Source: Dictyostelium discoideum (lineage: Eukaryota). Taken from it: 64,000 bases of DNA. Made by a program: the position numbers and the translations under genes. Shown one piece after another: positions 2,085 through 58,147 of this stretch. The notes under the pieces are model-generated. The model made no database searches. It was not told where the DNA came from and saw only the letters and a list, made by a program, of their open reading frames with translations. The stretch is from assembly GCA_000004695.1 (NCBI GenBank), contig CM000150.2, positions 4,608,001 to 4,672,000 on the forward strand, read 5' to 3'. How positions within the stretch are numbered: the first letter of the stretch is position 1; each line of letters starts with the position of its first letter.

Positions 2085-3533
2085 ATGATAGTAAATCAAG
2101 CATTAATTGAATTAACAAAACAAGTTGCAGTTGCGGTTGAAGAAATTAAATTTTCACCCAACTCAACTAGTAATAATTCAACACCAACAAATAATAAATT
2201 AAAATCATCATCGTCATCAATTTCAAATTGTGATTCGCCATCATCAAAATCGAAATCGAATAGTTCAACTTCAACCCCAACATCACAACCACAAACACCA
2301 TCACAATTACCACAACAAGCACAACAACAAGCACAACAACAACATTATTCAGCAAATTCAATGAATCCGTATTATGCACAACAAGTTTTATTACAATTAC
2401 AAAAACCATCAACATTTGTAAAACACGTTCATGTCGTTGTAAAGAATACACCATTTGGAATTACATTAAGATCTAAAGAACCATTACAATTTAATTTTCA
2501 AAATTATGTTATAAAAGCCACCCTACTCTATGATAGTGACCCACCAAAAATGGTTGATTTCATTCATAATGAGCCATTACAATATGTTGCAACGGTATCT
2601 GAAGATGGGTCAGAGGTTTGTGTTGATGTTAAAGTTGGTATTTTGTCAAGTCAACATCAAGGATCAATGTTTTTAGTTGTATTACATATTAGTCATTGCT
2701 CAGCACCAACACCATCAAATAGTGAACCAATTAGTACAATTCTAACAAATATTGGTAATAACTCTATACACAGTTTAAACGTTACAAATATTTGTGTTGT
2801 ATCACATCCAATTAGAATTGTTTCAAAATTAGATCACGTTAAAAAAGAAGGTATACCAATTTTAAAGAAAAGAACATTTCACGAAATTTTAACTGATAAA
2901 TTAAAAAAATTACAAAAATCACAAGATAGTCAAAGTAAATGGATTAAAAATCTATATCAACAACATGGTGCTCAATATGATATGGAACCTTATAATAGTA
3001 CTTTACATTCTCAAAAAACTGATTCACTCTGTTCTTCTTCAACTTCCACACCATCATTTAATTCAACCTCCTCCTCCTCAAAGAATCAATCCCAATCAAT
3101 TAAAAATGAAGAAGAAGAAGATGGTGGTGAAGACGAAGAAGAAGAAGGAGGCGAAGATAATGATAATGAAAGTGAATCAAGTAATACCAATAGTACACAA
3201 TTAATTGGGAAAAAAAGTATAAATAAATTACCAATTTCAACAACAACTTCATCTTCAAATTTTAATAATTTAATGGTTAATAATAATATAAATAATAATA
3301 ATAATAATAATAATAATAATCATTTAATTCAAAATACAACTTTTTCATCAACTAGTCATTTTCAAAATTCTTTTAATAGAGTAGTTGAAGTTTATAATTT
3401 AATTCCAGAATATGAAAGAGTTGAAGTTATTAGAAAAATGGTTCAACAATTAAAATCTTATGATTTAGAACAATTGGTTTCAACATTTATTGATGAATTA
3501 AAATGTGGTTATGAATCAACTATAATTTCTTAA
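2085..3533 (+). CDS. hypothetical Ser/Gln/Asn-rich protein (single exon)
   Basis: Uninterrupted 482-aa ORF in the track. Poly-Q, poly-N and acidic low-complexity tracts flank complex blocks (VKHVHVVVKNTPFGITLRSKEPLQFNF...; C-terminal RVVEVYNLIPEYERVEVIRKMVQQLKSYDLEQLV). Flanks are AT-rich. The overlapping ORFs 2167-2454(-) and 2965-3204(+) are low-complexity mirror artefacts. Confidence 0.6.
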   Translation: MIVNQALIELTKQVAVAVEEIKFSPNSTSNNSTPTNNKLKSSSSSISNCDSPSSKSKSNSSTSTPTSQPQTPSQLPQQAQQQAQQQHYSANSMNPYYAQQVLLQLQKPSTFVKHVHVVVKNTPFGITLRSKEPLQFNFQNYVIKATLLYDSDPPKMVDFIHNEPLQYVATVSEDGSEVCVDVKVGILSSQHQGSMFLVVLHISHCSAPTPSNSEPISTILTNIGNNSIHSLNVTNICVVSHPIRIVSKLDHVKKEGIPILKKRTFHEILTDKLKKLQKSQDSQSKWIKNLYQQHGAQYDMEPYNSTLHSQKTDSLCSSSTSTPSFNSTSSSSKNQSQSIKNEEEEDGGEDEEEEGGEDNDNESESSNTNSTQLIGKKSINKLPISTTTSSSNFNNLMVNNNINNNNNNNNNNHLIQNTTFSSTSHFQNSFNRVVEVYNLIPEYERVEVIRKMVQQLKSYDLEQLVSTFIDELKCGYESTIIS

Positions 3534-3668: not shown

Positions 3669-5378
3669 TTATTTATCAAATCGTAAATAAATTATAATAC
3701 TTTTATCACCATTACTAAAATTACCATCTTTAAAATTATTAAAATAATTTAAAATTTTTTTTTTAAAAATTAATTTTCTATTATAATATTTTTCATCTAA
3801 AGTTAAAGTAAATTCTTTTAAAGTTGAGTGAGAATTTTTTGAAAGTTGTTCTAATTTTTTAATATATTTTAAAGAATCATCAAATTGACATTCATTAATT
3901 TCTAATTCAATTGAATATAAACTTAAATTATTATGATTTTTTAATAATGGATTAAATATTGAAGAGACAAAACCTAATACAGTGAATTTGAAATGTTTAA
4001 TAGTTGAATTGATTGAGAAAACAGTTGAAAAGAAATAATCAGTAAATTGATCAAGTAATGGTGAAATTATTGAATCATCTATTAAGCTATCTAAATTTCT
4101 ACCTTTAGTTTTGAAAATTAAAGCTTTAATTGTTTTATTTCTAATTAAATTTGAATATGTTGATGTGAATTCAGTGAAATCAATATTTGTAAATTTTAAA
4201 TAATGTAATTGCGGTGGTGGACCGTCAAAAAGTGATTTAATACCATAGGATAGTTGAATCATTGATTCTCGAATAGAGGATGTATTATTTTTATCAATAC
4301 CATCATACATGCAATGTGGACCACGGAAACAGAAATTCTTTATCGTCATATTTTTTAACTGTTTGCAAGTATTTATTGAATTTATCATTGTTTCCCAATG
4401 GTTTTTAATTGTTTTAATTGTAGATTCATTTAAACCACCGAAATGATTACAACCATTATCATTGATACTTGAATAATTTCCACTTTCAGCTCTGATCATA
4501 TCATGAAATAAAATTGAACATGATAATGTATGAAGATTTGATAATTTATTTATATTTACCATATGATATGGTTCAACATGGTCAGTTCTATCAATTTGAA
4601 TCGATTCAATTCTTGGATTAATTATTTCATTAAAAAATGGTGAATAATTCATATGACAATATGCATCTTGATAATCATTACCATTTGGATTATATTTAAT
4701 TGAAAGTGGTTTAATTTTTTCAATAATATCTTCAAATGCATTTGGATTATTTTCACTTGTACCAACCATTGTTAATTTATTAATTTCAATATCTTTTAAA
4801 TAATAATCATCTGGTATACGATTTTCTTCATTATCATTTATAATTTTAAATAAATTATTTTCATTTTTATTTTCATGTTGTAGTTGTAGTTGTTGTTGTT
4901 GATTTTCTAAATTAATATTTAAAATTGAAAATTTTCCATTTATTTTTAATTTAAAATTTTTTTTTCCAGTTTTATTTGAAAAATAAAAATATTTTAATTT
5001 TTCATCAGAAATTGATTGAATTGGTTGTTGTTGTTGTTGTTTAATATTATTTGAAATTAAATTTGAAATATTATTAAACCATTTCTTTGATACTAATGAT
5101 ATTTCAATAATTTCATCAATAAAATAATATAAATTTTTAATTGTATATCCAAAATTATCTTTAAAATTATTTGTTCTTTTTTTATCAAAAATTAATAAAT
5201 AATTAATTATTGATTTTATAATTTCAAAATCCAAATAATCTGGAAATATTTTCTTATTTTCATTAAAATTATTATTATTATTTAGTTTTTGTTTTTTAAA
5301 TTGTTGAATTGGTAAATTTGTTGTAGTGGTTGTTGTTGTAGTTTTAGTTGATTGAGTTGTTGTTTGTGTAATTACCAT
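3669..5378 (-). CDS. hypothetical protein with F-box-like N-terminal motif
   Basis: 569-aa ORF. After an N-terminal poly-Thr tract, LDFEIIKSIINYLL...ISLVSKKWFNNIS resembles an F-box (LPxEI..I..L...L.VCKxW). The rest has no recognisable homology. Lies divergent to the next gene across a 1.4 kb AT-rich spacer. Confidence 0.55.
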   Translation of the reverse strand: MVITQTTTQSTKTTTTTTTTNLPIQQFKKQKLNNNNNFNENKKIFPDYLDFEIIKSIINYLLIFDKKRTNNFKDNFGYTIKNLYYFIDEIIEISLVSKKWFNNISNLISNNIKQQQQQPIQSISDEKLKYFYFSNKTGKKNFKLKINGKFSILNINLENQQQQLQLQHENKNENNLFKIINDNEENRIPDDYYLKDIEINKLTMVGTSENNPNAFEDIIEKIKPLSIKYNPNGNDYQDAYCHMNYSPFFNEIINPRIESIQIDRTDHVEPYHMVNINKLSNLHTLSCSILFHDMIRAESGNYSSINDNGCNHFGGLNESTIKTIKNHWETMINSINTCKQLKNMTIKNFCFRGPHCMYDGIDKNNTSSIRESMIQLSYGIKSLFDGPPPQLHYLKFTNIDFTEFTSTYSNLIRNKTIKALIFKTKGRNLDSLIDDSIISPLLDQFTDYFFSTVFSINSTIKHFKFTVLGFVSSIFNPLLKNHNNLSLYSIELEINECQFDDSLKYIKKLEQLSKNSHSTLKEFTLTLDEKYYNRKLIFKKKILNYFNNFKDGNFSNGDKSIIIYLRFDK

Positions 5379-12483: not shown

Positions 12484-13012
12484 TAATAAAAATAATTATA
12501 ATGATAATTATAACACATTATAAAAATACATATTAATCATTTCAATTATCATAAAAATACAGTGTTTACGCCGCAGAAGCCTCACCATGTACAGTAGATG
12601 GAAAGACTTTTCATAAAAGTCTGTAATTTTTCATTTAAACAAAAAAAAAAACTGAAATTTTGAACTATCAATTTAATATACATGATTTTATTAATATTTT
12701 TTTTACTTTTATTATCATTATTTTTTATAAATAATTAGGTTGTACCTTATGTTCTGATTGCAGAAAAGGACTTGATTCAACAACAATTTGTGAAAATGAA
12801 TCTGTAAGATATTATATTTAATTTGGGTTTATTTTAGTTTTATTTTATTTTCCCATAAATCAGTATTAATATAAAATAATTATTTTAGAAACTTTATTGT
12901 AAATCATGTTATGGAAGAAAATTTGGTCCAAAACTCTTTGGTTTCGGTATTTATCAACTAATTATAAAATCAAATCAATTAAAAAAAAAAAAATTCTCAA
13001 ATTTATTAATTA

Positions 13013-13088
<76 letters not shown>

Positions 13089-13128
13089 ATTTTTAGGTGG
13101 TGGTGGTGCCATTGCTCACACTGAATAA
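12271..13128 (+). CDS. small cysteine-rich LIM-domain protein, CRIP-like (5 exons)
   Basis: Exons 12271..12323, 12563..12618, 12739..12803, 12889..12946, 13097..13128. The spliced product is MPPKFGSSAPKCGVCAKSVYAAEASPCTVDGKTFHKSCTLCSDCRKGLDSTTICENESKLYCKSCYGRKFGPKLFGFGGGGAIAHTE. It has a CxxC-x17-HxxC-x2-C-x2-C-x17-C-x2-C LIM pattern and a GPKxFGFG tail as in vertebrate CRIP1. Introns 1 and 4 carry (AAT)n/(ATT)n repeats. Confidence 0.7.
12332..12500. repeat. (AAT)n microsatellite in LIM-gene intron 1; (ATT)n at 13014..13088 in intron 4
   Basis: Direct observation. They produce the spurious poly-Ile ORFs 12252..12518(-) and 12906..13124(+). Confidence 0.9.
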
Positions 13129-13707
13129 ATTTGAAATCATTATTATTATTTAAAAATTCTATTTAAAAATGTACAAATCATATGAAAAACAACAATAAAT
13201 TATTTTTTTCCCAAACAAGAAATTTAATTTTTTTTTTTTTTTTTTTTTTTTTTCAGGAAAAAGAATTAAATTTAAGTTTCAAATTATGAATTATTGGAAG
13301 AAAAAAAATATATATATATCAAATATAAATTAAATAATTCAATATTCAAAAACTAATGAAGAATATAGGTAGACAATATTCAATGCAATGTTATTTTTTA
13401 ACTTTTTACATTATTTTTTATTTTTTATTTTTTATTTTTGTTTGGTCATTTAATAGCATTTCGATTCAATATTTGGTAACCCCTCAAAATTAATTACAAA
13501 AATGAAAAATGAAAAATAAAATAAACAATAATTTAAAAATAAAATTTTTAGAAATAAATAAACAAGATAAAAAATAAAAATAACTTCTTTAAATAAATAA
13601 CTTTTTTTTTTTATTGATACAAATGATTAAAAAAATTTTTTGATTATTATTTTTAATAATATTATTATTATTAAAATTATTATTATTATTATTACTACTA
13701 TGATAAC

Positions 13708-13762
<55 letters not shown>

Positions 13763-13792
13763 TTATTATTATTATTATTTTTATTATTATTT

Positions 13793-16700
13793 TTATCTTC
13801 TAAATGAAGAAGAATCAAAACTTTCTTTTGTTGATGTGGAAGAATTATTTTTATAGGATAAACCGGACTCACCAACTCTTCTGGAATTTGAATTAAAATC
13901 TTCACGATTTGGAGTTACATAATCTAAATGAACAATATTAGTTGATTGTTTTAAACCAGTGAAATGACCTTGATTATAACAATAGAAAATTGAAAGTGAA
14001 GGAATGATTTCAGTGATAATTAAACCTAAGAAACTAAATGTAATATTTGAAGGATTTGCAGCAACTAAAATTAAAACGAAAACACAATGAATGATAAAAC
14101 CAATTGAACAAGCAAATGTAACTATAAATATTTTCTTTTGATGTTGGCTTGAGGAACTATTTCCGCTTGAACCACTGCCACCACCTGAACTACTACCACC
14201 ATTTGTACTACCACCATTTCTATTTTTTTTAATTGATCTCATTGATAGATATAATGAACCACCCAAATAAAGGAAAGCTGAACCAATAACAAAAGAAATT
14301 ATAGCTTGAATAATGGCATAAACAATTGAAACTACATATTGCGAGGTTGTGCTTGAAACTTCTAAAACGATTCTAGTACCACAATCATTACTTGGATGAT
14401 CTTCAGTATAATTGAATACCAATACAATTACAATGAATAATAAATAAAGTATAAGATTTGTAGCTAAAATTATAATTTTCAAACGTTTAAATAATGTTCT
14501 ACCAGAATCTTTAGAATTTACAATCATATACCAAAGTGAAACGATAATGGTAAAAGCTGTAAAATAAATAAAAGTTGGTAAAACCACTAAAATATAATCT
14601 GCACTTGAATTATTTTGAAGTGCACCACTTGGTATAATAAAGAAATAAATGGCTCTAATTAAAATGAAAATTGATACAATCACAATTAAAAAGTGTACCA
14701 ATTTAATTTGTTCGACACCTTTATATTTTCTAATAACAACCATTACAACTTGGAAAATACCCCAAATTGCTGTTAACATGAAAATACAAGCCAATGTATA
14801 AATTAAACCGGTTGCAGTTTTATCAAAAACTTCTTTCTCTTGACTTGACCAATTTTCAATACGAATAATTGGAAAGAATGATTTATCCTCTGTGAAATTG
14901 GTTAATATTGTACAAAGTAATTCACTTTCATCAACTGGCGATTTTTTAGTAAAAGTTTCAACATCCAATGGTCTTAATGGTGAATTTGAAGTTGAGATTG
15001 CAAAATCATAAATATCATAGGATTTTGAATATTTTGTACCATTAAATTGTAAACAAATTGTTAATGATAAAACACCTTGTGTATTAATAGTTATACCATC
15101 ACCTAAAATTGTACCAATAATTGCATCTTTATCATTTAGAATACCATAATTGTCAGGCTTTTTATATGATACGAAATTTGATGATAAAGTTTGTGCAATA
15201 GTTGATTTATAAAGTTGTTGAGAAACTTGTGATACCAATACTGATGTACAACCCGATTGTACTGATTTCTTAGTAAATTCAACTCTACCAAATGAAAAAT
15301 CATATGATGATTCTTCATTTGCACATGGTTTAGATTGACCTAATAATAATGCCGATGATGAGAAACAATCTGGTGAACCATTTTCAGAACAACTACAACT
15401 AATTGAACGTAAATTACCTTCAACTCTTTCCATTCTACATAATACTTCAGAACGATAAAGATCTGCAATATGAGTATTTACTGAATCATCCAATTCATTA
15501 AAAAGTTGTTCATAATTTAATACTTTTCTAACAGAGGTTGGATAAACATATTGATTGGTTCTCCATTGTGGTTTAATAGAGATACCACCTTGCCAAACTG
15601 CTGGAGTCCATTGGAAAATATTTTCCCAAGAATTTAATGATTCATTACCACATCCTGTACAAAGTTCTTCTGTCATTTGATTGAATCTAAAATTATAAGG
15701 TAAATTGTATGGACTATTATCAAGGATTTTACAACCCATTGGTGCTTCACATTCTTCACGTGTTGTTGCTGGTGCCCACCAAGTGAAACCTTCATCAGCT
15801 TGTAAATTACAAACTCTATGTGAACCCTCTGGATAATATGGGAAACAACCCATTGGTGAATCTGACTGATAGAATGTATCACAAGTTGGAGTTTGGAAAC
15901 CAGTTAAATAAGCGAAATGACCTCTAACACATTTACCCATGTTCTCTGGATAGTATGGTACATTTTCTGTTGTGAAAAAGTAAGAATCTGAACATTGACC
16001 TGCATTTTCACATTCTGCTTTGGTTGCACATTCAATTGGTTGAAGATAACATTGACTAAATGTAAAATCATAACATTCATCATATGGTTGATTTTCACAA
16101 TCTACCCATTGATAAATAAGATCAACTCCATCATCATTTAATGCAGCACATGCTTCTTTAGTTTTAGTATTTGCTAATTCACACATATAATTATCTTCAG
16201 ACCAAGTTGTATTTAAAATTGTTTGACAAACTGTTTCATTCATATAGAAGCTACCACCTTCAACACCACAACCACTATAACCTAAACCAACACATTCTTT
16301 ACCACATGGTAAATTACAATTACCATAATTATTTTCACAATCAGTTGGATCAACATCATATAATACTTCACCATTTGATAATATACAAACATTTGCTACA
16401 GTTGGTGATTTACATTGAACTTCATCAAAGTTATCGTCGAAATTAAAACAATCTGTTGAATTTGTTGAACAATAACCACAATACTCTTGAATTGCATTAC
16501 ATTTATCGATACAAGTTTGTTCGTCATCAACTTCAGGATCACAATCTGTTGGAATTTGACAGAATCCAATTGATTCACAAGTATCTAAATTTGATTGTAA
16601 TGAAAAACTCCAACCACCGATCTGACCATCGAAACAAGCATCATGTACAGTTACACAAGAATGATCTAAACAATTGGTTGTTGGATAACATGAATAATTA

Positions 16701-19393
16701 ATACCAATACCACTAGCAGTATAAGTATAGGTACCACGATAATCATTACCATATTGATTGGTACAATCATCCCAACTCATTGCGTTGAAAACATTTGAAA
16801 TTAATGAAGCATTACTTTGAATACCATATTTATTTAAAAATGAATAAGTATATGATGCTGGTAACCTATTGAAAACACATTCTAAATATTTCAAATCCAA
16901 TTGTTCTGGTGGTATCATGCAAATTCTTTGTTTTAAATCACAAATGATTGATTGGTTAGTTGGACCATAGGTACCACAATCGTTATCGGAAATACATGGT
17001 GTATCATTTAAAACATCTTTACAATCTCTTAATGCATCTCTCATTTCCATTGCACTATTGGTTGAAACAAATGCTGGTACATCACAGTCACTAACTACTG
17101 ATAATGAATTATAATATTCATTTAAAACTGATGCTGTACATTGTGAACTAAAACATTGATCTTCAACCAAATCATCATAGATTCCAATGAATTCTGATAC
17201 TTTCACTGGCACCATTTTTGGTTGACAACATTGGAAAAATGATAATGTAACATTACAACATGGATCCAAATCATATTCTGGGTCATTCGATGAATATGAA
17301 CAAACTGAAAGACTTTTATTAACAAAACTATTATCAGTTTGTAAAAAACTACCTGCTTTATCACTACATGCTTTCCATGAATCTGATAATGTCAATGTAT
17401 CAATATTAAAAATAATTGAATTTACAATTGAAAAATCAGTATTATTATATAATGTACTCTCTAAACTATCCATTTCCTTTAATAATTCTTCAAATTTTTC
17501 ATTATCACATTTTAATTCATTATTTAATGTTAATGTAAAATTACCTTCTAATGGCTAATAAATAAATAAATAAATGAATATTAATTATTTTTTTTTTCTA
17601 TTATTATTTAATAATAATTAATAAATAACTTACATTTCCATTTTTATCAACCAAAGTATTTAAAAATTCAATTTTTGAAGTTAAAATATCTTGAAAACCT
17701 TTATTTAATTGAGAAAATTCACCTTCAGTAGTTGATAATAAAAATGCAGTTGAATAATGATTTTTTCTACTTTTATCATTATAATAAGTGATTTTATTAA
17801 ATCTATAATCATCAACAAATTGTGCTGGAATTGGCCAAACTGGAAATGATTCTAAAAATGGGTATAAAATTGAATAGGATGTACAGGTTGACCAACCACT
17901 ACATTTATAAAAACTACCATTTGGTAAGAATAATCTTGATGATCCTAAAATTGAAAATGCACCACCTCTTGCATAATTATCACTAATTGATATTAATTCT
18001 GTTGTTGTTAATGTTGATATTGTAAATGAATAAACTGATGCATAATATGTTGATACTGTAATATATAAAGTTTTTGGGGTACCATCTGAATTTGGTTTTA
18101 ATGATAAAATTATATAATCATCATCTAAATTAAATTAAATTTAAAAAAATTATTATTATTATTATTATTAATATTTATTAATATTTTTTTTTTTTTTTTT
18201 TTTTTTTCGAAAAAAAAAATATTTACTTTCATTAATACATTCCCATTTTGAAGGGTTTGTATAATTTGGTTTTGTATTTGATGGATCATCTGAAATGAAA
18301 AAATCAATATCTTGGAAAATTGTTGGTGCTGAAAATGAAACAATACTTGGTTTGGTAACTTGAAAAGTGTAATAAGCAAGTTCACTTGCAAGTTTAGTTT
18401 CACCAACTGCTGGTACACCATCAACAATACATTCATGATCTGGTAAATTTGGTAAATTTGTACATGTTGTTGTTGGTAATTTTGATGTTGGTTGAATTTC
18501 TAAAAATAAAAAAAAAAAAAAAAAATTAATAATTAAATATATTTCTATTTATAATTATTATTATTATTATTTTTATTTTTTTAATTTTTTTACCTTTTGA
18601 AATTATTGTTAAATTAAAGTTTATATATTTTGATAATGGTATAATTGTTAAGAAATAAGTATCCAAAGTCCAAACATCTAAAGAGGTACCATCAAGATCA
18701 AAACCATTATCAGATGGACAAAACGCTGGTTGAATAAAAGTATCTGGTGAAATGTTTGGAGTTAATCTATTGAATAGACTTGATGGTGAATTTCCAATAG
18801 ATATGTAGTATCTACCTTGATTTTGAGATGACTCAATTCTTATGCCTTCACAAATGAATGCATTTGCTTTATAACGAATTGTAATTGGTTTATCTGTAGA
18901 TTCAAAATTTGTTGGAACATTTGCCTTTATTGTATCCCAATTTGGATATTTTGTACTATTACAAAAATCAACATTACATAATGTTTGGTCACATGATGAA
19001 TCCAATATTTTTGGACATTCATTCATATTGGTATAATCGCATGAACAATCAATATTTCCATTAATTATTGGTAAAGTACAATCAAAGTTACCACATGGAA
19101 CATTTCTAATACGATATAAATCTTGATCAAATTCAAAATCTATTAATGCATAATCAAACTCAACTCCTAATACATTTGTTGATTTTTCTATAATTTTACT
19201 TGATTTTACATTTATACAATTTATTAAATATATACCTAAAAAAAATAAAAATAAAAAAAAATAAAAAATAATAAAATAAATGAGTAAGTAATTAATTAAT
19301 TTATTAAAATAAAAAAATAAAATAATTTTAATATTTACAATTTATTAAAATTAATATAATAAAAATTATATTAATTATTTTTTTTATTATCAT
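13793..19393 (-). CDS. large cysteine-rich extracellular-domain protein with C-terminal seven-transmembrane domain (GPCR-like), 5 exons
   Basis: Exons 19393..19339, 19235..18594, 18499..18227, 18123..17633, 17554..13793. Exon 1 is a signal peptide (MIIKKIINIIFIILILIN). Phases are consistent across all junctions. The track ORFs 18526..19026 and 13793..17473 are exon bodies; the apparent Met at 17473 is internal. The C-terminal 400 aa contains seven hydrophobic helices, with a Gly/Ser loop between TM5 and TM6. The N-terminal roughly 1,300 aa are Cys-rich. Confidence 0.55.
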
Positions 19394-19872: not shown

Positions 19873-20079
19873 TTAGAAAAAGTCTAATAATAATTGGGGT
19901 AGGACTTTTTCTAATTGTTGTAAATCAATGTCTGATGAGGGGTCATTCCTGTGCATCCTTGAAACTGATTCCTTTATAAATATTTCAATAAAGTCACATA
20001 ACATATCCATTGCATCTTCTGTTATTTTAATATTATCATTTTTAAAATTTAATCTTATTATTGATTCTATTGTTTTCTA

Positions 20080-20418: not shown

Positions 20419-21156
20419 TTAGTTATCTGGAGCAGACCATTCAGCAATTGGTTGTTGAGTGAATTCAACAGCTTCAACGGCAGCAACTGGAGCGGCAGCA
20501 ACAGCGGCGGTTTTTTCTTTTTCTGGTTCTTCATCAGTATCTCTGTAGATGAAGAGATCGACTTTGACAGACCAGGTGGTGTTTCTTGGGATGGTACCTC
20601 TTAAGTATAAAACTTCACGAGCTAATAACCAGAACATTAAGGCAATTGAGTTTTTACCACGGTTGTTACATGGGATAGCAATATCAACACCGTCTAAACA
20701 TGAGGTGGTATCACAGAGAGCGATGGTTGGGATATTTACGTATGAAGCTTCCATTAATGGTTGTTTATCTAATAATGGATCAGCAACAATCAAAAGTCTT
20801 GGTTCAGTGAATTTTGATTGGATTTGATTGGTAAAGGTACCTGGGGTGAAACGACCAGAGAAAGCGGTGGCACCGATAAAGTTGGCGAATTTGAGGACGG
20901 CACGTTGACCCAATGGTTTGGCAGAGATAACTGAGATATCAGCTGGGTTTTCAATAGCAACGATGACACGAGCAGCTAATTGAATCTTTTCCCAAGTTTT
21001 GGCAAGATTGATGATGAAGTGACCATTATCCTTTCTCTTCCAGGTGTATGATTCCATTTCAACATCAACGTTGTTACCACCGAGATGGGTTTGACAAGCT
21101 AACATCTTTAAGATATCATCTTGATGTGGGTTTAATGCAGCTGGGAATTGAGTCAT
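20419..21156 (-). CDS. rpsA: 40S ribosomal protein SA (p40 / laminin-receptor homolog)
   Basis: 245-aa single-exon ORF with strong identity to eukaryotic RPSA ([90 protein letters not shown]). Codon usage is C-ending, typical of highly expressed Dictyostelium genes. Confidence 0.9.
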
Positions 21157-21763: not shown

Positions 21764-23107
21764 TTAAAAATTTTGATAATATTGTTGTTGTTGTTGTTGT
21801 GGTGGTTGTTGATATTGTTGAGAAGTTGGTTTATTAAAGTTTATATTACTAAGAAGCATAATTTCATTACCAATTTGAAGAGAATGTTGAGAGTTTGTGG
21901 TATTTAAAGATAAATTATCATTATTAAAGAGTTTTAAAGGTGGAGCTATTTTACAGAGTTTTAGGAAATCAGCGATTTCACTTTCATGTGTTGTTTGTTT
22001 TGAATTTCTCAATGTTGATACAAACACAGCATCATCATTGTCGTCAAGTGTATTGATGGGTGGTGAGGATATTCTTGATCCATCCTTTGTAAATTGATTA
22101 ATATGATGTTCACTCAATAGTAAAGGACCATGAATTTGGCTGATTTTACTATTTTTCATTGAGGAATTGTTTAATCTATCTATACCACTTGCACCAAATG
22201 AATTGGTTGAACCTGGTGAAGAACTTTGATAGAGTGGATTATTGAATAATGCATTATTACCACTTATACCAATTAAATTATTATTGCTATTGTTGTTGCT
22301 GTTTAACAATGTTAAATTACCACTACTATTATTACCAACTAAACCACCACCACTACCACCAATACCATTACTATTATTTAATAAGGTTAAATTGTTATTA
22401 CTATTATTACCAACCAAACCACCACCACTTGCACCTGTACTACCAATTAAACCGCCACTTGTACCTGTACTACCACCACCACTGTAATAGTCCAAAGTTG
22501 AGGGTTCTTTAAATGGAGATATACTAACATGAAATGGTGGACTTTTTGTGCCAGATGAAGATGATTTTGGAAAGTTTTGAAATGGTGGAGCTTGTTGATG
22601 AATAGCAATTGGAGCAGAGGTTGCTCTAGTTTTTGATTGTTGATTATTGTATGATGTTGGTGATATACCAGTGGTTTGATTTGGAATTGTGAAACTAACC
22701 TGTCTTATTGGAAGTGGATTTGATGATGGATGATTATTAATGTTAATACCACCACTTGTATTAATATTATTACTTGTTGTTGTTGTTGTAGTTGTTGAAC
22801 CAAATGGTGGTGATGAACCATATTGATTATTATAATTTGCATTTCCACTTCCAATCTTTATTGAGTTTGATGAAAATGGTGGGGATGATGATAGTGATGG
22901 TGGTTTATTAAATGATGATGAATATTGTTGTTGTTGCTGTTGCTGTTGCTGTTGATATTGTCTATTATTTTGCATACCTGGTATAAATATTGGGTTGCTT
23001 TGTGGGTTATTATTATTATTTTCATTGAAATTATAGTTATTATTATTACTATTGATTATATTATTATTATTGTTATAACTATTATTGTTTGTATTAAAGT
23101 TATTGAA

Positions 23108-23142
<35 letters not shown>

Positions 23143-24502
23143 TGATGTTATTAAAATTATAGTTTGCATTACTATTACTATTATTGTAGTTATTAAAATT
23201 ATTATTTGTTTCAAAAGGCATCGAATTTGAGTCGTAAGGTGATGAAGAGGTTGGTTTTGAGTTATTATTATTATTATTGTTATTTAATAAATCTTGTAAT
23301 GTACCCATTCTCGTAAGTTGGGGGTATGATGATGGATAATCTCTGTTATATGATGTTGATAAATTATTATCATTGGTATTATTATTGTTATTGTCATTGT
23401 TGTTGTTATTATTATTGTTGATATTAATGTTATTTGTATTGTTTATAATATTCGTATAGTCATTATTACTATTGCTGTTGTTGCTATTATTATTATTATT
23501 ATCATAGTTATTTCCAGATTGATAGTTATTATAATCTTTAATTATAAATTGTGATTCTAAACCTATATGAGAACTAGCTGAAATCTCTCTCGTTAAATTT
23601 TCTTTATAGGATAAGTCAATTTTTAAAATACCCATAGGAGTTGGAATTGCTGTAAATGATACTGTTTTTATACTCGTAGCTATAATAAATATACATATAT
23701 ATATATATATATATTGTGTTAGTTTTTTTTTTTTTTTTTTTTATTTTTTTTTTTTATTTTTTTTTTTTTTTCTAGTTTTAATAATAATATATTTACATAA
23801 TGGAAATGAAGGAGTTGTAATTGATTGTGAATCACAAACTCTTAGTTGGTAATTAACTGAACAAGTTGCTGATCTATTTTTTGAAAAATTTTTAAATAGA
23901 GAATAGCAAGGTATATTTCTAAGCATTGCATAAATTGTTCTAATTAAAATAATAACATTTTTATAAAATTTAGGTAACTCAACTGAATTATCAATCTCTC
24001 TTCTACAAATTTAAAAAATAATTTTTTTTTTTTTTTTAACAATTAGTAAAATTATTATTAATTTTTTGTGATAGTATTGTGTATACATACGGATCAAATA
24101 TTATTCTCCAAGATTCAACAATTGTATTTAAACCTAAACCAACATTTTCATCAAAATGAATTTCTATAACAAATAAAATTCTCATATCATTTTTGAGTAC
24201 TATTCTATCAATTTCCTGTCTATGTATGTCTGATTCCTCTGTTTCTAAATGAAACTATATTATATATATAAAAAAAATAAATAAAAATAATAATTAAAAT
24301 AAAATAACAAACAAAAAAAAAAAAAAAAAAAAAAAAGTTAATCATTTGATCATATATGTGTGTAGTGTGTCTATGATTTATATATACATACAGTTTTATT
24401 AACCCTTCTTGAAACTGATGAAGTTTCAACTCTTGATAATAATATACATTGTGATATCTTTGAAATGGTTTTTCGGATTAAATCTGAATATCTTGAATCC
24501 AT
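21764..24502 (-). CDS. autophagy-related protein 13 (Atg13)-like HORMA-domain protein with long Asn/Gln/Ser/Gly-rich C-terminal region (4 exons)
   Basis: Exons 24502..24392, 24254..24091, 24002..23797, 23679..21764, with phases consistent. The N-terminal roughly 200 aa (ISQCILLSRVETSS..., RILFVIEIHFDE, YKNVIILIRTIYAMLRNIPCYSLFKNFSKN, ATCSVNYQLRVC) follow the Atg13 HORMA pattern (compare human KTVQVIVQARLGEK / [27 protein letters not shown]). The track ORF 21764..23635 is the low-complexity last exon. Confidence 0.5.
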
Positions 24503-33716: not shown

Positions 33717-35879
33717 ATGAAAACAAATTTCACACCACCATCAAAAATAATTAAAAAGAATATATTTGATTTAACATTTACAATTAATAGTTTACCAACA
33801 CATTTAATTAGAAAGATATTATCATATTATTATAATCACTGTTTATCAATGTATGAGTATATTGAAAAGAGTAAAGGTAGTCAATTCTCAGGATATAAAT
33901 TAAGATTTCGTTGGATGGATTTATGTTTAGTTTGTAAATTTTGGATGGAAATGGTTATGCCGTACCTACCGAATACATTCTATTTTATGGATTCTCAGCA
34001 AAAGTTGGAAACCTATTTAAATCTATGTGAATATGGTGGCACGTTTCCAAGACGTTATTTAAAGCAAACTGTACTTCGTGTATCAAAACCACCAGCTTCA
34101 ATAAAGAAATACCCATTCCACATAAACTCGCTAGCAATTTATATCAATCGTTATCAAATGCCAAATCATTATCAGCCAGATACAATCATACCAGAATTTA
34201 TCTATCAACAAATCTTAAAGATATCACCAGACTTGAAGAATCTTAAATTTCAAACTGCAAAAACTGAAAAAGATTTATACTACCTATTGAAATCAATTAA
34301 TGAATCTATAACTCAATCGATTACACCATTACTATCATCATTGAATTTCGATTATTCAATATTTTCAGCCTCAATGCTTTATCAACTTTGTAAAATAATA
34401 GAATCACCAAATTGTACTATTACAAATCTATCATTAAACAATTGCACTTTGTCAACCAATTCATTAGGTGAATTTAGTGATGGCATCATTGATGATGGTG
34501 ATGATGATACAAAAGTTTCATTCATTACATCATTTAAAAAGAATAAATCAATTACAACTTTAAAAATGAATGAAAATAATTTCTTTACAAATTCAAAATC
34601 ATCAAAGAATAGAATTTTAATGGGTGGCACAATTTTACAATTTTTAAAATTGGTTTTAGTAGATTCAACTTCAATTTCAAATTTTCAATTCAATGGTAGT
34701 GAAATATTTTTAGATGAATTAAATAATGAATGTAATAAAATCAATTATCTAACACCAATGCAATCATCATTTGAAAAACTATCATTATCCCTATTGAATA
34801 TTGATAGTTTCTTACCATATTTAGAATATTTAATCACTAGTTCAAGTAATAGTATTAAAGAATTGGATCTTTCTCATTCAAGATTTTCAAATTATTCAAA
34901 TTTAAATAATTTATTAATTTCAATTCAACATTGTCAATCATTATTAAAATTAAATTTATCATCTTCTTCATTTAATATAATTGAAAATTCAAATAATAAT
35001 AATAATAATGTTGGTTTTATTCAACATCCTCAACCACAACAACCACCATTACCACCACAACAACAACAAGATTTTAATGGAAATGGTGGTGATGATGATG
35101 AATTTTTTGATGAAAATGGTGGTGGTGGTTTTGGTGGTAATAATTTTGATGCAAATTCAACAAATGCTTTTAATGAAAATTTTAATGATCAAACTTTATT
35201 TAATAGATCACCAATTGGTTGGGAAAGATTTAGTTTTTTATATGGTACACAATCGTTGATTTCAATTAATTTATCATCGATTAGAATGAGAGATGAAAAA
35301 GAGATGAACTCATTATTTCAATCATTGTGTGGTTCACCTCAAATTCAACAACTATATTTGAATAGATGTGGTTTAACAAGTGGTTGTTTAACTCAATTAA
35401 CCAATTTCATTAGACAACCAAATTCAAAGTTAGAGCTATTACATATTGGTAGTAATGGATTGGGTGGTGGTGGCTCGTCAATTCAAATTCTATTAATGGC
35501 ATTTCAATTAAATAAATCATTAAGTGATATCGATTTATCCTATAATAGTATGACTGATATAGAGGGTTATCATATTGCAAACTTTTTAAAATCAAATGTA
35601 TATGGTGATAAACAACAAATTAGACATTTAAATCTTTCTGGTAGTAGTTTTAAATTGGGTGCAATCAATCAATTGGGTCATGCTCTAATGACCAATAATT
35701 CTTTGGTCTCTTTAAACCTTTCAAATATTCAAATGGGTATGTTGGAAATTACCTATATCTTTGATGCTTTGGTCTCTCATCCAACTATCTCTTTATTAAA
35801 TCTTTCAAATGTTGGTTCAAATGAAATGATTACTTCTTTAGTTCAAACTTCTGCTTTGCGTTGTAATGTAATTTATTAA
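33717..35879 (+). CDS. F-box-like / leucine-rich-repeat (RNI-type) protein
   Basis: 720-aa single ORF. It has an N-terminal F-box-like segment (LPTHLIRKILSYYYNHC) and C-terminal ribonuclease-inhibitor-type LRRs (LYLNRCGLTSGCLTQLTNFIRQPNSKLELLHIGSNGLGGGG..., IDLSYNSMTDIEGYHIANFLKSN). Confidence 0.65.
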   Translation: MKTNFTPPSKIIKKNIFDLTFTINSLPTHLIRKILSYYYNHCLSMYEYIEKSKGSQFSGYKLRFRWMDLCLVCKFWMEMVMPYLPNTFYFMDSQQKLETYLNLCEYGGTFPRRYLKQTVLRVSKPPASIKKYPFHINSLAIYINRYQMPNHYQPDTIIPEFIYQQILKISPDLKNLKFQTAKTEKDLYYLLKSINESITQSITPLLSSLNFDYSIFSASMLYQLCKIIESPNCTITNLSLNNCTLSTNSLGEFSDGIIDDGDDDTKVSFITSFKKNKSITTLKMNENNFFTNSKSSKNRILMGGTILQFLKLVLVDSTSISNFQFNGSEIFLDELNNECNKINYLTPMQSSFEKLSLSLLNIDSFLPYLEYLITSSSNSIKELDLSHSRFSNYSNLNNLLISIQHCQSLLKLNLSSSSFNIIENSNNNNNNVGFIQHPQPQQPPLPPQQQQDFNGNGGDDDEFFDENGGGGFGGNNFDANSTNAFNENFNDQTLFNRSPIGWERFSFLYGTQSLISINLSSIRMRDEKEMNSLFQSLCGSPQIQQLYLNRCGLTSGCLTQLTNFIRQPNSKLELLHIGSNGLGGGGSSIQILLMAFQLNKSLSDIDLSYNSMTDIEGYHIANFLKSNVYGDKQQIRHLNLSGSSFKLGAINQLGHALMTNNSLVSLNLSNIQMGMLEITYIFDALVSHPTISLLNLSNVGSNEMITSLVQTSALRCNVIY

Positions 35880-39037: not shown

Positions 39038-41118
39038 TTTAAATTCTAATATTTTTAAAAATATATTAGTGTAATGTTATGGAACGTGAATGTTTTGAAA
39101 ATGTTGAAATTGCTAAAGTAATGAATGAATATTGTGTAAATATTAAAATTGACCGTGAAGAAAGACCAGATATTGATAAGATTTATATGACCTATTTAAC
39201 CGAGATTAGTGGATCAGGTGGTTGGCCGATGAGCATTTGGTTAACACCTCAATTACATCCAATCACAGGTGGTACATATTTCGCACCAGAAGCAAAGTAT
39301 GGTAGACCAGGGTTCCCTGACCTTATAAAGAAATTGGATAAACTTTGGAGAAAAGATAGAGAAATGGTTCAAGAGAGAGCAGATTCATTCATTAAATTCT
39401 TGAAGGAAGAAAAACCAATGGGTAATATTAATAATGCATTGTCAAGTCAAACCATAGAGAAATGTTTTCAACAAATTATGAAAGGTTATGATCCAATCGA
39501 TGGTGGTTATTCTGATGCACCAAAATTTCCAAGATGTTCGATTTTCAATCTCCTATTAATGACTTTAAAAGAGGATTATTCAAAACAAGTTGGATCATTA
39601 GATAAGCTAGTATTCACATTGGAGAAAATGGCAAATGGTGGAATGTATGATCAAGTTGGTGGTGGTTTTCATAGATATTCAGTTACCTCTGACTGGATGA
39701 TACCACATTTTGAAAAGATGTTATATGATAATGCACAATTGGCATCAGTTTATTTAGATGCTTATCAAATCACTAAATCACCATTATTTGAAAGAGTAGC
39801 TAAAGAAATCTTACACTATGTTTCAACTAAATTAACTCATACTCTTGGTGGTTTCTTTTCAGCTGAGGATGCAGATAGTTTAAATTTAGAAATAAATGAA
39901 AAACAAGAAGGTGCATTCTACGTTTGGTCATATCAAGATATTAAAAAAGCAATTCAAGATAAAGATGATATTGAAATTTATTCATTTCACCATGGTTTAA
40001 TTGAAAATGGTAATGTAGATCCAAAAGATGATCCACATAATGAATTTAAAGATAAGAATGTAATAACAATTGTAAAGAGTTTAAAAGAAACTGCAGCATA
40101 CTTTAAAAAGACTCAAGAGGAAATTGAAAAATCATTAAATCAATCAAAAGAGAAATTATTCAAATTTAGAGAACAATTTAAACCAAAACCACAATTGGAT
40201 GATAAAATCATTGTATCATGGAATGGTTTAATGGTATCATCATTTTGTAAAGCTTATCAATTATTTAAAGATGAAAAATATTTAAATAGTGCAATTAAAT
40301 CAATTGAATTCATAAAAACCCATCTATACGATAGTGTTGGTGATGATAATGATTACGATGATGAAGACGATAAACTTAATAATTGTAGATTAATTAGAAA
40401 TTATAAAGATGGTCCATCGAAAATTCACGCATTCACAGATGATTATTCATTTTTAATTCAAGCATTATTGGATTTATATCAAGTTACATTTGATTATAAA
40501 CATTTGGAATGGGCAATGAAATTACAAAAACAACAAGATAATTTATTCTATGATTTAGAGAATGGTGGTTATTACTCAACATCTGGTTTAGATAAATCAA
40601 TTCTATCTAGAATGAAAGAAGAACATGATGGTGCTGAACCATCACCTCAATCAATTAGTGTTTCAAATTTATTAAAACTTTACTCAATAACCTATAATGA
40701 AGCCTATAAAGAGAAAGCAAAGAAAACCTTGGAGAATTGTTCATTATATTTAGAAAAGGCACCACTTGTTTTCCCACAAATGGTTTGTTCATTATATTTA
40801 TACTTAAATTCAATCAATACAATCATTCTATCAACTAATAGTAATGATAATCAACAAAAACAACAATTACTATCAATTCTTGATGAAATTCATTCAAATT
40901 ATATACCAAATAAATTAATTCTATTAAATGATCATTCAAATAATTCAATTACACAATTCTTTGAAAAGAGTACTTCAAATTTAAATTTATCACTTTCAAC
41001 ACCAGTTTATGATAAAACTACATTTTCATTATGTAATCCAAATGGTTGCACAATTTCAACAAATCAATTACAACAAATTAAATCAAATTTAATAAATCAA
41101 ATTTATCCAAAATATTAA
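38538..41118 (+). CDS. SPATA20-like protein (thioredoxin-like N-domain + six-hairpin glycosidase-like domain; DUF255 family), 2 exons
   Basis: Exons 38538..38963 and 39070..41118. An intron with a roughly 60-nt A-run splits the conserved CHW|CNVME motif. [81 protein letters not shown] matches the SPATA20/YyaL N-terminus. Confidence 0.75.
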
Positions 41119-41482: not shown

Positions 41483-44400
41483 ATGGAAATCTTATTCTGG
41501 AAAGTTTTTAAAAATAAATATTTGTTTAGATTAATATTTGATGATGTAAAGAATCAAAGTATATATAGTGATCAAAGAAGACATATGATTTCAAAAAGAA
41601 TTAGATTTGAACAAATTCAATCATTAGAATGGTTAATTCAAAAGAAACAATATAATCTTTTAAAAGATAAATTAAAATCAAATCAACCAATACATATAAC
41701 TGAACAATCTATAAAGAGATTATTTCAAGATATTAAATCAATTGAAATTAAATCAAAACTTGGAAAACAAATAATTGAAATTTTAAAACTTTTATATCAC
41801 CACAAAAGAGATGAAATGAATACACTCGATTTAATTGAAACATCAATGATTTTTAATTCAAAAATTGCATTATCAACATTTTTAGAAATTTTCAATAATA
41901 CTACTGATGATAGTGAAGATGATGATGAAAATAATAATGAAAATAATAATAATAATAATAAATTATCAAAAGAATTATTTGATTTAGGTATAATTAATTC
42001 AAGTTTTGAATGTTTAAAATTTATAATTGAAAATTATTCAATTAATTATACAGAGTCAGATTTAATAAAGAATGCGTTGGATTCAAATGAACCAGATAGA
42101 ATGTTAGAATTTATTGAAATTGAATTAAAATTAGATTTAAAAGAATTGATTAATAAATATAGAGATAGGAAACAAAGTCATATTAAATGTTTATCAATTT
42201 ATTTTTTAAAATCAATTAGATATAAATTATTAATTTTAGAGAATAATTTCATTATTGATAAAGGTGATGATGGTGCACATAGTCAAACTATTTCAACGAC
42301 ATCATCGAATTTCGCTGCTATAATGGATGGTCCAAATAAGAATTCATTTCAAGAACAAGAGGAGAATTCTTCAAATTTAGATTTCAACAATTTAAAAGCA
42401 ATGCTATTGGAAAGATTTGATACGACTTTAAAGAGAACACCAATAATTGAATCAATGAAAAATGTTACAACAACTAATCAACTATTGGAATTACATAAAA
42501 AACATTTAGATTTACAATTTATATCATTCAATGTTATAAATGAAAGAGTTGATGATGAAATTCCAACATTTTTAAAATCGATTTTCTTAACTAGGAATAC
42601 ACTATTTCATCTTATTAAATTATCTTGTATGTATTTTAATTTGGATGCTTTGAATCTTTATTTTAAAGTTTCTAGTTCCGGTTGTGATTTAAGATTTCCA
42701 GATGCTGTAAATGTTTCATCATTCAATTATAATGGAATTAATAAATTGGTTCAATCTGAAACTAAAATAGTGGAATTTATAAATAAAGCCTTTGAAATAC
42801 TTTCAGAAAAACTACTTTATGAAAAAGATATCTTTAAAATCATTGTAAATGTATTATTAATTAAATATGATAGTAATGTAATTGAAGCAGTATTAAACAA
42901 TTGTTTATCTTTTTCAAGTCAATTTCTATCATTCATTTTAAATGATTCAATTAATGGTGATGAAGTTGTAAGGTTAATTTGGAAAAATCCAACAATACCA
43001 ATAGATAATTTATTAATAGTTTTATCAAGAAAACGTGAACCATTTAGAGAAAGAGGTTTATCATTATTCATTTCAAATCATACCGATCAAGATAAAATTA
43101 AAATTTTTAATAATATTTGTAAAGTTGATAGAATCTTATTAAAATCAAAAGGATTACAACCATCATTAACAAAATCCTATAGAAAGAAATTAATTGAAGA
43201 TTATTTACAATTAAATAAAAAATCATTATCAAATTCAATTAATATATTTAAACAATTAGATTTAGATTCAATTGAATTAAAAGATGAAATCATTTCATTT
43301 TTATTTAAAGATTTTATTTTAAATTCAATATTTAATAATGATAATGATTATGATAATGGTCAAGAAGAAGAAGAGGAGGAAGAAGATAAGGAAAATAAAA
43401 TTAAAATATTAAATGAAATTTTTACAAATATATCTCAAGTTTGTGGTGATGGTGAAAATCAAATAGTTTTTTCAATTGATTTATCAATTATTGAAAAAAT
43501 TACAATAATTTTTAAAATTTTAAAAAATAATTTTATAAATATTGAAATTATAAAGAAATCAATTGAAAAAGGATTTTCAGATGAATTAATTATAAAATTA
43601 TTTCAACTTTCAAAAGAATGTAATTCGATTATACCAAAGGATATAATTTTTAATAGTTTATTAGTTGATAAAAGATATTTTTTAGTTAGTAACCTTATTG
43701 AATCATTTAAAGAATCAAATGGTAAAATTCAATATTTTACACCATCACCATTTTCATTGGATCCAAGTTTTAGAGAATCAAGTTTAAATGTTGATAGATT
43801 ATTTACAAATTTAAAGAATAAACAATTTTTAAGTTCAAAAATTCCATTAGGTGCAGATTGGAATCTAACAAGTCATAATGAATTTCTTTTAGATTTTAAA
43901 TCTTCAAATTCAATTGCCAGTTGTTTCTTTAAGAGAAGTGATATTTTTGAACATTTAATTGAATTTTTAGATTTCAGTAGGTTTAAATCAATTTATTCTT
44001 TAGATCATTCATTTGATGAAAAAATAAAGAAATCATTACCTTCACTTATAAAAGCAAATAGATTAGATCTTTTACAATATTATTTCCCATTCATTCAATT
44101 TCAATCGTCAAATGAAGTTACACCATTAATAATGTTATCAATTCAATTGGGTAATATTCAAATTTTAAATTTCTTTTTAAACTATCCAACTTTTAAAAAC
44201 TCTGAAATACAATTAGATTTTCAAGAACTTTTTAGAGAATCTTTAAAATTTTGTCATTTTAATATTATTAAATTATTAATTTCAACCGTTTCAAATAGTA
44301 ATAATAATAAAAAGAATTCCCTTGAAATTAATTCAAATCAAATTTGTCATCTTATTATCAATAATAGATTAGAGATTTTAAAATACCTATACAAAGAAAG

Positions 44401-44713
44401 GTTATTGGGAATTTCTGATTTTCAAGATTTCTCACTTGATACTCGTACAAATTCAATCATTTCCAGAAAATCTTTATTTGCTACTCGTCTACAAAAAGAT
44501 AATTATACTTTCTTTGCAAATTATCTGTACCCAATTTTTATATCACCATCAAATATTATATTACCTGAAAAATTATTTTATTTTATATTAAAAATTAAAG
44601 AAAATGATTGTTTAGTTTTTAACGAAAAAAAAACAAAAAAAATCATTGAAATTCGTAATAACAAAAGATTAGAAAAATTAATAAAACAAAAAAATAAAAT
44701 GAAATTAACTTAA
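41483..44713 (+). CDS. hypothetical 1076-aa protein
   Basis: Single long ORF with Dictyostelium-typical composition. It has an N-terminal MEILFWKVFKNKYLFRLIF motif and an acidic/Asn tract. No family was recognised. Confidence 0.55.
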   Translation: MEILFWKVFKNKYLFRLIFDDVKNQSIYSDQRRHMISKRIRFEQIQSLEWLIQKKQYNLLKDKLKSNQPIHITEQSIKRLFQDIKSIEIKSKLGKQIIEILKLLYHHKRDEMNTLDLIETSMIFNSKIALSTFLEIFNNTTDDSEDDDENNNENNNNNNKLSKELFDLGIINSSFECLKFIIENYSINYTESDLIKNALDSNEPDRMLEFIEIELKLDLKELINKYRDRKQSHIKCLSIYFLKSIRYKLLILENNFIIDKGDDGAHSQTISTTSSNFAAIMDGPNKNSFQEQEENSSNLDFNNLKAMLLERFDTTLKRTPIIESMKNVTTTNQLLELHKKHLDLQFISFNVINERVDDEIPTFLKSIFLTRNTLFHLIKLSCMYFNLDALNLYFKVSSSGCDLRFPDAVNVSSFNYNGINKLVQSETKIVEFINKAFEILSEKLLYEKDIFKIIVNVLLIKYDSNVIEAVLNNCLSFSSQFLSFILNDSINGDEVVRLIWKNPTIPIDNLLIVLSRKREPFRERGLSLFISNHTDQDKIKIFNNICKVDRILLKSKGLQPSLTKSYRKKLIEDYLQLNKKSLSNSINIFKQLDLDSIELKDEIISFLFKDFILNSIFNNDNDYDNGQEEEEEEEDKENKIKILNEIFTNISQVCGDGENQIVFSIDLSIIEKITIIFKILKNNFINIEIIKKSIEKGFSDELIIKLFQLSKECNSIIPKDIIFNSLLVDKRYFLVSNLIESFKESNGKIQYFTPSPFSLDPSFRESSLNVDRLFTNLKNKQFLSSKIPLGADWNLTSHNEFLLDFKSSNSIASCFFKRSDIFEHLIEFLDFSRFKSIYSLDHSFDEKIKKSLPSLIKANRLDLLQYYFPFIQFQSSNEVTPLIMLSIQLGNIQILNFFLNYPTFKNSEIQLDFQELFRESLKFCHFNIIKLLISTVSNSNNNKKNSLEINSNQICHLIINNRLEILKYLYKERLLGISDFQDFSLDTRTNSIISRKSLFATRLQKDNYTFFANYLYPIFISPSNIILPEKLFYFILKIKENDCLVFNEKKTKKIIEIRNNKRLEKLIKQKNKMKLT

Positions 44714-54404: not shown

Positions 54405-58147
<3,743 letters not shown>

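Follow-up and report, generated by a model that had tools for sequence, protein, structure and literature searches.

Among plant membrane proteins, THH1, TOM1 and TOM3 (Pfam family PF06454, formerly DUF1084) form a family with a seven-transmembrane (7TM) domain, a non-cytosolic N-terminus and a debated status as G-protein-coupled receptors (GPCRs). They are about 290 amino acids (aa) long and comprise little beyond the 7TM domain, and, to our knowledge, their sole known function is as host factors for viral replication. Here we analyse a window of 64,000 nucleotides (nt) from Dictyostelium discoideum (GenBank assembly GCA_000004695.1, contig CM000150.2, positions 4,608,001 to 4,672,000 of the forward strand), and in it a minus-strand gene at window positions 19393-13793. 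Its product resembles the plant proteins in having a homologous seven-helix domain, a non-cytosolic N-terminus and an equally debatable GPCR status, but differs from the TOM1 archetype in that a signal peptide and an ectodomain of 1,358 aa are added and in that its match to PF06454 is borderline.

Several other described systems share parts of this layout. Adhesion GPCRs (class B2: latrophilin, CD97/ADGRE5, BAI and CELSR) have a 7tm_2 domain, a GPS and the HL-T/S motif, none of which is found here; their GAIN subdomain A is formed of six helices, whereas a single long helix is present in the Dictyostelium protein, and the 7TM domains belong to different sequence families. ZU5 domains (of ankyrin, UNC5 and PIDD, and in the FIIND of NLRP1 and CARD8) are cytosolic, while the juxtamembrane beta-sandwich described below is extracellular, carries conserved cysteines, lacks the HF-S motif and shares with them 3-15% identity, which amounts to no sequence similarity. 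The GOLD-domain seven-helix proteins (TMEM87, GPR107/108, GPR180 and Wntless) likewise combine a luminal or extracellular beta-sandwich with a GPCR-fold bundle and are of uncertain G-protein coupling. Bacterial collagenase collagen-binding/PPC domains resemble a second sandwich of our protein by predicted fold, at 13-18% identity and with no Pfam PPC match.

The most complete census of social-amoeba GPCRs, a phylogeny-wide one in which receptors were chosen by InterPro signatures of families 1-6 and TOM1/THH1 is unmentioned, found the amoebozoan family 2 receptors to be without long N-terminal or GAIN domains (PMC10445921), and a survey of choanoflagellate GPCRs mentions THH1/TOM1/TOM3 solely for its weak structural resemblance to a family that has the 7TM alone (PMC12716839). 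Our literature search on TOM1/TOM3/THH1/DUF1084 in Dictyostelium found no study of the family in amoebae, nor did we find a paper on a TOM1-type 7TM fused to a giant ectodomain. In databases the family members are named only "hypothetical protein" or "THH1/TOM1/TOM3 domain-containing protein".

Joining five exons of the minus strand gives an in-frame coding sequence of 5,223 nt that encodes 1,740 aa and closes with one terminal stop; all four introns are short (79-103 nt), AT-rich and bounded by GT...AG. A first-pass annotation, made from the letters of the window alone, had proposed five exons at 13793-19393 and a protein of about 1,750 aa; the coordinates are exactly those found here and the length is close. 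Exon 5 by itself is an open frame of 1,253 codons in DNA of ~22% G+C, a length that cannot be due to chance at such a composition. At the level of sequence the five exons appear as one gene, because exons 2-5 each match contiguous parts of a homologue-built ectodomain profile (which no other sequence in the window matches), because the signal-peptide N-terminus encoded by exon 1 (MIIKKIINIIFIILILINCIYLINCINVKSS...) has counterparts in the D. firmibasis and D. purpureum orthologues (P0003 and P0004), and because the upstream CENP-X reading frame is separate. The closest database protein is from D. discoideum and is 100% identical. A tandem paralogue was also sought in the window and ruled out, as only this gene matches the family profiles.

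Two NCBI models, P0001 (D. discoideum, 1,790 aa) and P0002 (D. dimigraforme, 1,791 aa), have a part of CENP-X in place of the signal-peptide exon 1. The CENP-X open reading frame (ORF; window 19873-20010, minus strand, and upstream) has its own stop codon and extends to the end of the Pfam profile, and in the D. firmibasis annotation the order is Ribosomal_S2, CENP-X as a separate 73-aa gene (locus L001 3268-3572), and a receptor orthologue of 1,732 aa; we therefore rejected the fused models, which are most likely annotation errors. Their differing 5' end could be taken to mean that the 5' exons come from another transcript and that exon 5 alone is the real gene, but we consider such an artefact extremely unlikely: the contiguous profile matches of exons 2-5 and the separateness of CENP-X speak against it, as do the shared signal peptide with which the orthologues begin and the full-length architecture, which is conserved among 18 dictyostelid homologues and in numerous more distant proteins.

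Kyte-Doolittle hydropathy reveals one N-terminal segment and seven segments at aa 1400-1680, with no others, and an AlphaFold2 run on the membrane part (aa 1150-1705, with 18 homologues) places seven helices at aa 1399-1431, 1439-1463, 1470-1500, 1507-1539, 1557-1600, 1620-1652 and 1658-1679, so that the earlier count of exactly seven is recovered by both methods. Lys and Arg are concentrated at the cytosolic ends of TM1, TM4, TM5 and TM6, and just one basic residue falls in the three outer loops, which fits a protein whose N-terminus faces outwards; the conserved cysteines, 20 N-glycosylation sequons and the signal peptide likewise support an outer or luminal location of the N-terminal part. 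By these predictions the gene encodes a signal-peptide-led, N-terminus-out, seven-pass membrane protein. Given this topology and its position between TM5 and TM6, the Gly/Ser run lies in intracellular loop 3, where the first-pass annotation had put it, and the short Ser-rich cytosolic tail of that annotation is likewise present. Within the tail, a motif L-x-Y-V-T-P-N-x-E (aa 1696-1705; window 13850-13900, minus strand) is found in dictyostelid orthologues and not in paralogues, and may be a docking or phosphorylation site. The 7TM is the best-conserved region of the protein (identity 0.73 around TM3 among dictyostelid homologues), with invariant polar residues inside the helices (D1473, N1520, Q1570, H1643 and E1669).

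The seven-helix bundle superposes on solved GPCRs, and by sequence it belongs to the THH1/TOM1/TOM3 family. The full-length protein scores 24.1 bits against PF06454, just below the cut-off of 25, and a C-terminal fragment 27.3 bits; the domain is found in 16 of the 18 homologues (best E-value 9.3e-13), and a distant environmental relative, P0046, reaches 47.4 bits in an alignment that takes in almost all of the profile (positions 14-265 of 273). No match to 7tm_2 was obtained for this protein at E up to 1 or for the 18 homologues at E up to 0.1, and the Pfam families Frizzled, Lung_7-TM_R, 7tm_3 and GpcrRhopsn4 match neither the protein nor the homologues; accordingly neither the class C signature (7tm_3 with a Venus-flytrap/ANF receptor domain) nor that of class F (the Frizzled 7TM profile with the Fz cysteine-rich domain, CRD) was found by Pfam. 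One homologue of the 18 has a very weak Wntless-like TM match (E=0.06), with no clear match to Wntless, and weak full-protein matches to Spectrin_7 and DUF3836 (E about 0.2) were dismissed as chance. The GPCR-like architecture noticed earlier therefore holds as far as the fold is concerned, while the suggested kinship with adhesion, frizzled or LUSTR receptors does not: profile searches against the Frizzled, GABA-B, LUSTR/GPR107 and adhesion families gave no match, and PF06454 was found instead. By the same token, the idea of an undescribed receptor class applies to the ectodomain and the overall architecture and not to the 7TM domain, which is of a known family.

The ectodomain (aa 28-1385) contains 76 cysteines, in agreement with the signal peptide and Cys-rich ectodomain of about 1,300 aa proposed before, and 71 of the 83 cysteines of the protein are at least 90% conserved across 18 dictyostelid homologues. 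Pfam returned zero matches on the ectodomains of ten family members, and when the PDB was searched by sequence, using the protein itself and profiles of its ectodomain and of its C-terminal part, nothing meaningful came up; the absence of a CRD, GAIN or Venus-flytrap signature, first judged by eye, extends to what can be detected by sequence (no Fz CRD, GPS/GAIN or Venus-flytrap). Structure prediction, which had been suggested for this region, gave a confident AlphaFold2 model of aa 186-1385 (1,200 residues, from a 36-sequence alignment), with a predicted local distance difference test (pLDDT) score of 81.3 and a predicted template-modelling score of 0.77, suggesting that the ectodomain is a real, foldable unit. 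In this model it is a rigid, disulfide-rich, glycosylatable multi-domain module consisting of N-terminal beta-sandwiches, a helical and Cys-rich core, and a beta-sandwich preceding TM1; the last of these is present also in the first, independent prediction (aa 1150-1705).

In a Foldseek comparison of the ectodomain model with the PDB, the only matches were to collagenase collagen-binding/PPC domains, with E about 4e-4, and to the ectodomain of CD97, with E=1.7e-3. Fold matches to ZU5 and GAIN have alignments spanning 118-157 residues, and GOLD matches are weaker than those to ZU5, GAIN and PPC. Because 118-157 residues exceed the 107-residue PPC-like domain, the ZU5 and GAIN matches most likely belong to the 164-residue juxtamembrane sandwich as modelled. 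The idea of an adhesion-like receptor thus gains some structural backing, though the GPS motif is absent. The helical and Cys-rich core (~660 residues) has no specific fold match, generic helical bundles only.

The protein is not specific to Dictyostelium but is a member of a large, old and uncharacterised family. An exhaustive HMMER search with a profile of aa 186-1385 against 1.84 billion cluster representatives found 957 proteins at E≤1e-3, 521 at E≤1e-10 and 188 at E≤1e-30, and these include Planoprotostelium, Protostelium and Stygamoeba besides dictyostelids, so that the lineage-specific expansion suggested by the first-pass annotation is not upheld. Word-indexed searches, run both with the protein and with an alignment of the family, recovered no proteins beyond 18 from dictyostelids, and one with an alignment of 30 distant members recovered its own first sequence alone, low-complexity words having taken up the list of candidates. 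Thirty representatives were looked up, and all that are named are amoebozoan (dictyostelids, Planoprotostelium fungivorum, Protostelium nocturnum and Stygamoeba regulata); the remainder derive from metagenome or read-archive assemblies, with very variable amino-acid composition. D. purpureum has at least six paralogues.

We examined 164 family sequences (the top matches together with the dictyostelid homologues), most of which are 1,300-1,800 aa long, begin with a signal peptide and have seven helices at the C-terminal end. The same 7TM type is carried by 124 of the 164 after one profile iteration; a different 7TM in some multi-pass relatives was considered and ruled out, since after iteration all match (E=1e-30 to 1e-53). 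In ~25 relatives (including P0099, P0103, P0105, P0119 and P0126) the same core, ending YFPIxR, is followed by a single TM helix. This single-pass subgroup keeps the juxtamembrane sandwich, and in P0126 the core is preceded by FG-GAP repeats. What the whole family has in common is the core of aa ~485-1385, the N-terminal sandwiches being less widespread. The sequences thus point to an old and large family in which the core is always set on the same 7TM type or on a single TM helix.

Two relatives have unusual layouts. P0019 (3,464 aa) has two full copies of the ectodomain, each with its own seven helices; it probably represents two tandem paralogues merged by gene prediction, and hints at tandem duplication in some dictyostelid. 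P0088, of Planoprotostelium fungivorum (2,331 aa; UniRef name "Guanylate cyclase"), has a protein kinase domain at aa 198-451, followed by a hydrophobic segment, the ectodomain and the 7TM, and is either a real fusion with an odd topology or a merged gene model.

We hypothesize that the protein acts at the cell surface, as a receptor or as a sensor of adhesion; we put the chances of this at about even, and its function and G-protein coupling are what we infer. Its layout is like that of an adhesion GPCR, but the 7TM comes from another family and no autoproteolysis motif can be recognised. The ectodomain would bind something outside the cell, for example a polymer of the matrix or cell wall, the surface of prey or bacteria, or another cell. 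The juxtamembrane sandwich would pass binding or pulling forces to the 7TM bundle, and the bundle would then change conformation and signal, through intracellular loops that are basic and a Ser-rich tail that is probably phosphorylated, to a cytosolic partner, whether a heterotrimeric G protein or not. Counted in favour, together with the topology, the conserved 7TM and the foldable ectodomain described above, are the PPC/collagen-binding-like sandwich, by its modelled fold a domain of binding type, and the modularity implied by the same core on one TM helix in ~25 relatives. Other observations weigh against this hypothesis. Plant TOM1 and TOM3, on which the 7TM family was founded, are known from the vacuolar membrane and not as surface receptors. 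They are host factors of tobamovirus replication (PMC9366062); in a split-ubiquitin assay TOM1 did not bind the G-alpha protein GPA1, which the TOM1-like Cand3 and Cand5 did bind (PMC2530877); and a 2026 preprint groups TOM proteins outside canonical GPCRs (10.64898/2026.03.02.708220). The receptor status of the THH1/TOM1/TOM3 family is thus unproven. Within the protein itself, the placement of the ZU5 and GAIN matches on the juxtamembrane domain derives from alignment length, no GPS/GAIN Pfam signature occurs in any of the 18 homologues, the turn before the last strand (NFTEDKSFFP) lacks both the GAIN motif HL-T/S and HF-S, the motif of ZU5 domains that cleave themselves, and the last-strand motif is 50-65% conserved and present also in single-pass relatives, so that it may be purely structural.

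These last features bear equally on the proposal that the protein is a self-cleaving receptor, in which the last strand (SFFPIIR...) of a divergent GAIN/ZU5 autoproteolytic sandwich would serve the 7TM as a built-in agonist, as in adhesion GPCRs. The last strand and linker form a family motif, YFPIxRxxxW, immediately before TM1, and the pair C1321-C1368, more than 90% conserved, is a candidate disulfide pinning the penultimate strand; however, neither cleavage motif nor any GPS/GAIN Pfam match is present, the turn ahead of the last strand is not conserved in the family, and the strand motif is retained where only one helix follows, which together make this proposal very unlikely. An endomembrane location (vacuolar, lysosomal, Golgi or contractile-vacuole), with the domain luminal and the seven-pass protein acting as a cargo or glycan receptor or scaffold without G-protein signalling, is possible, if on the whole doubtful. 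It would suit a 7TM of the TOM1 family, the failure of TOM1 to bind G-alpha (PMC2530877), the very weak Wntless-like match of one homologue and the layout of the GOLD-domain proteins of the Golgi (TMEM87, GPR107 and Wntless), which also sets a luminal beta-sandwich next to a GPCR-fold bundle, but GOLD fold matches are weaker than those to ZU5, GAIN and PPC, Lung_7-TM_R, GpcrRhopsn4 and any clear Wntless match are lacking, an ectodomain that is 1,358 aa long and includes a domain of collagen-binding type would be more usual in a protein of the surface or matrix, and the single-pass relatives with the same core resemble type I surface proteins. Those relatives, the PPC/collagen-binding-like domain and the many conserved cysteines (putative disulfides) would also agree with a protein that mainly organises adhesion or matrix (cell-substrate, cell-cell or cell-prey), for which the seven helices are a sturdy anchor exchangeable for one TM. 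The strong conservation of the 7TM and its invariant intramembrane polar residues argue against a passive anchor, and since a mere anchor would drift or be swapped, whereas 124 of 124 multi-pass members retain the same 7TM type, we hold this explanation to be unlikely.

A bolder extension of the receptor hypothesis is that the family constitutes an amoebozoan adhesion-type seven-helix class, in which a GAIN/ZU5-like domain is joined to a TOM1 bundle (as an ancient relative of GAIN-7TM receptors or an independent invention), the last strand is a tethered activator, and the ~900-aa Cys-rich core is a new fold. We regard this as improbable; if true, the TOM1 proteins of plants would be pared-down survivors of what was formerly a receptor-like family.

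Here a catalogued 7TM domain appears in a new setting, fused to a conserved ectodomain of 1,358 aa, and the ectodomain core, with 957 cluster representatives and no Pfam model, marks a large blind spot of domain databases. Whether the plant THH1/TOM1/TOM3 proteins are receptors has been debated without a decision ever since TOM1 was put forward as a candidate GPCR, and if the protein described here signals, Dictyostelium would offer a genetically tractable test of it. The likely ZU5/GAIN-type juxtamembrane domain would have a bearing on the origin of the pairing of beta-sandwich and seven helices in adhesion-type receptors. If the protein serves only in adhesion or trafficking, its family would still be a major one among the uncharacterised surface or luminal proteins of amoebae. 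The exons of the gene and the domains of its product are located as listed in Table 1.

Table 1. Exons and protein regions of the seven-helix gene, with positions in the 64,000-nt window and residues of the 1,740-aa product.
Feature	Window position	Strand	Residues (aa)	Remarks
Exon 1	19339..19393	-		55 nt; ATG at 19393; most of signal peptide (MIIKKIINIIFIILILIN, phase 1); strongest N-terminal hydrophobic peak
Exon 2	18594..19235	-		End of signal peptide, small Cys cluster C66-C110 (invariant Cys), first N-terminal beta-rich region; ectodomain profile E=1.8e-13
Exon 3	18227..18499	-		First half of PPC-like beta-sandwich; family ectodomain profile E=4.3e-30
Exon 4	17634..18124	-		Second half of PPC-like sandwich and alpha/beta region; ectodomain profile E=1.4e-62
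Exon 5	13793..17554	-		Conserved ectodomain core, 7TM bundle, tail and stop; 1,265 bits (ectodomain profile), 444 bits (7TM profile)
PPC/collagen-binding-like beta-sandwich	18015..18437	-	254-360	Contains intron 3; predicted structure and fold match
Alpha/beta region		-	375-495	AlphaFold2 model
Family-wide conserved ectodomain core	14861..17642	-	about 485-1385	Contains intron 4; profile positions ~300-1183 covered by most of 123 distant matches; invariant Cys
Helices and long hairpin		-	505-746	Carries DPCCN...CCxP(K/R) at aa 584-600 (window 17216-17266)
Cys-rich region of small elements		-	747-1166	AlphaFold2 model
41-residue helix	15392-15514	-	1168-1208	Ahead of juxtamembrane sandwich
Juxtamembrane 12-strand beta-sandwich	14861..15352	-	1222-1385	Last strand SFFPIIR; TM1 fourteen residues on
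Seven-helix bundle	13979..14821	-	1399-1679	THH1/TOM1/TOM3 domain; GPCR fold
Gly/Ser low-complexity insert	14159..14215	-	1601-1619	Between TM5 and TM6; pLDDT <50; length and sequence differ among orthologues
Cytosolic Ser-rich tail	13796..13978	-	1680-1740	61 aa; LxYVTPN motif kept in dictyostelid orthologues

Just downstream of the gene, the poly-Ile/poly-Asn "ORFs" of both strands at window positions 12906-13124 and 13627-13905 are AT-rich simple repeats, intergenic and non-coding. Five further ORFs, at 41483-44713 (plus strand), 33717-35879 (plus), 21764-23635 (minus), 3669-5378 (minus) and 2085-3533 (plus), are long (482-1,076 aa) and encode proteins that are likewise uncharacterised, in which Pfam at E up to 0.001 identifies nothing. 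Upstream, a 245-aa ORF at 20419-21156 (minus) encodes the 40S ribosomal protein SA (Ribosomal_S2), and D. firmibasis has S2, CENP-X and the receptor gene in this same order. Elsewhere in the window are a DUF255 thioredoxin-like protein with a weak C5-epimerase C-terminal match (39079-41118, plus), a Dicty_CTDC cysteine-repeat protein (44829-45941, minus) and an importin-beta-like HEAT-repeat protein (54405-56666, minus).

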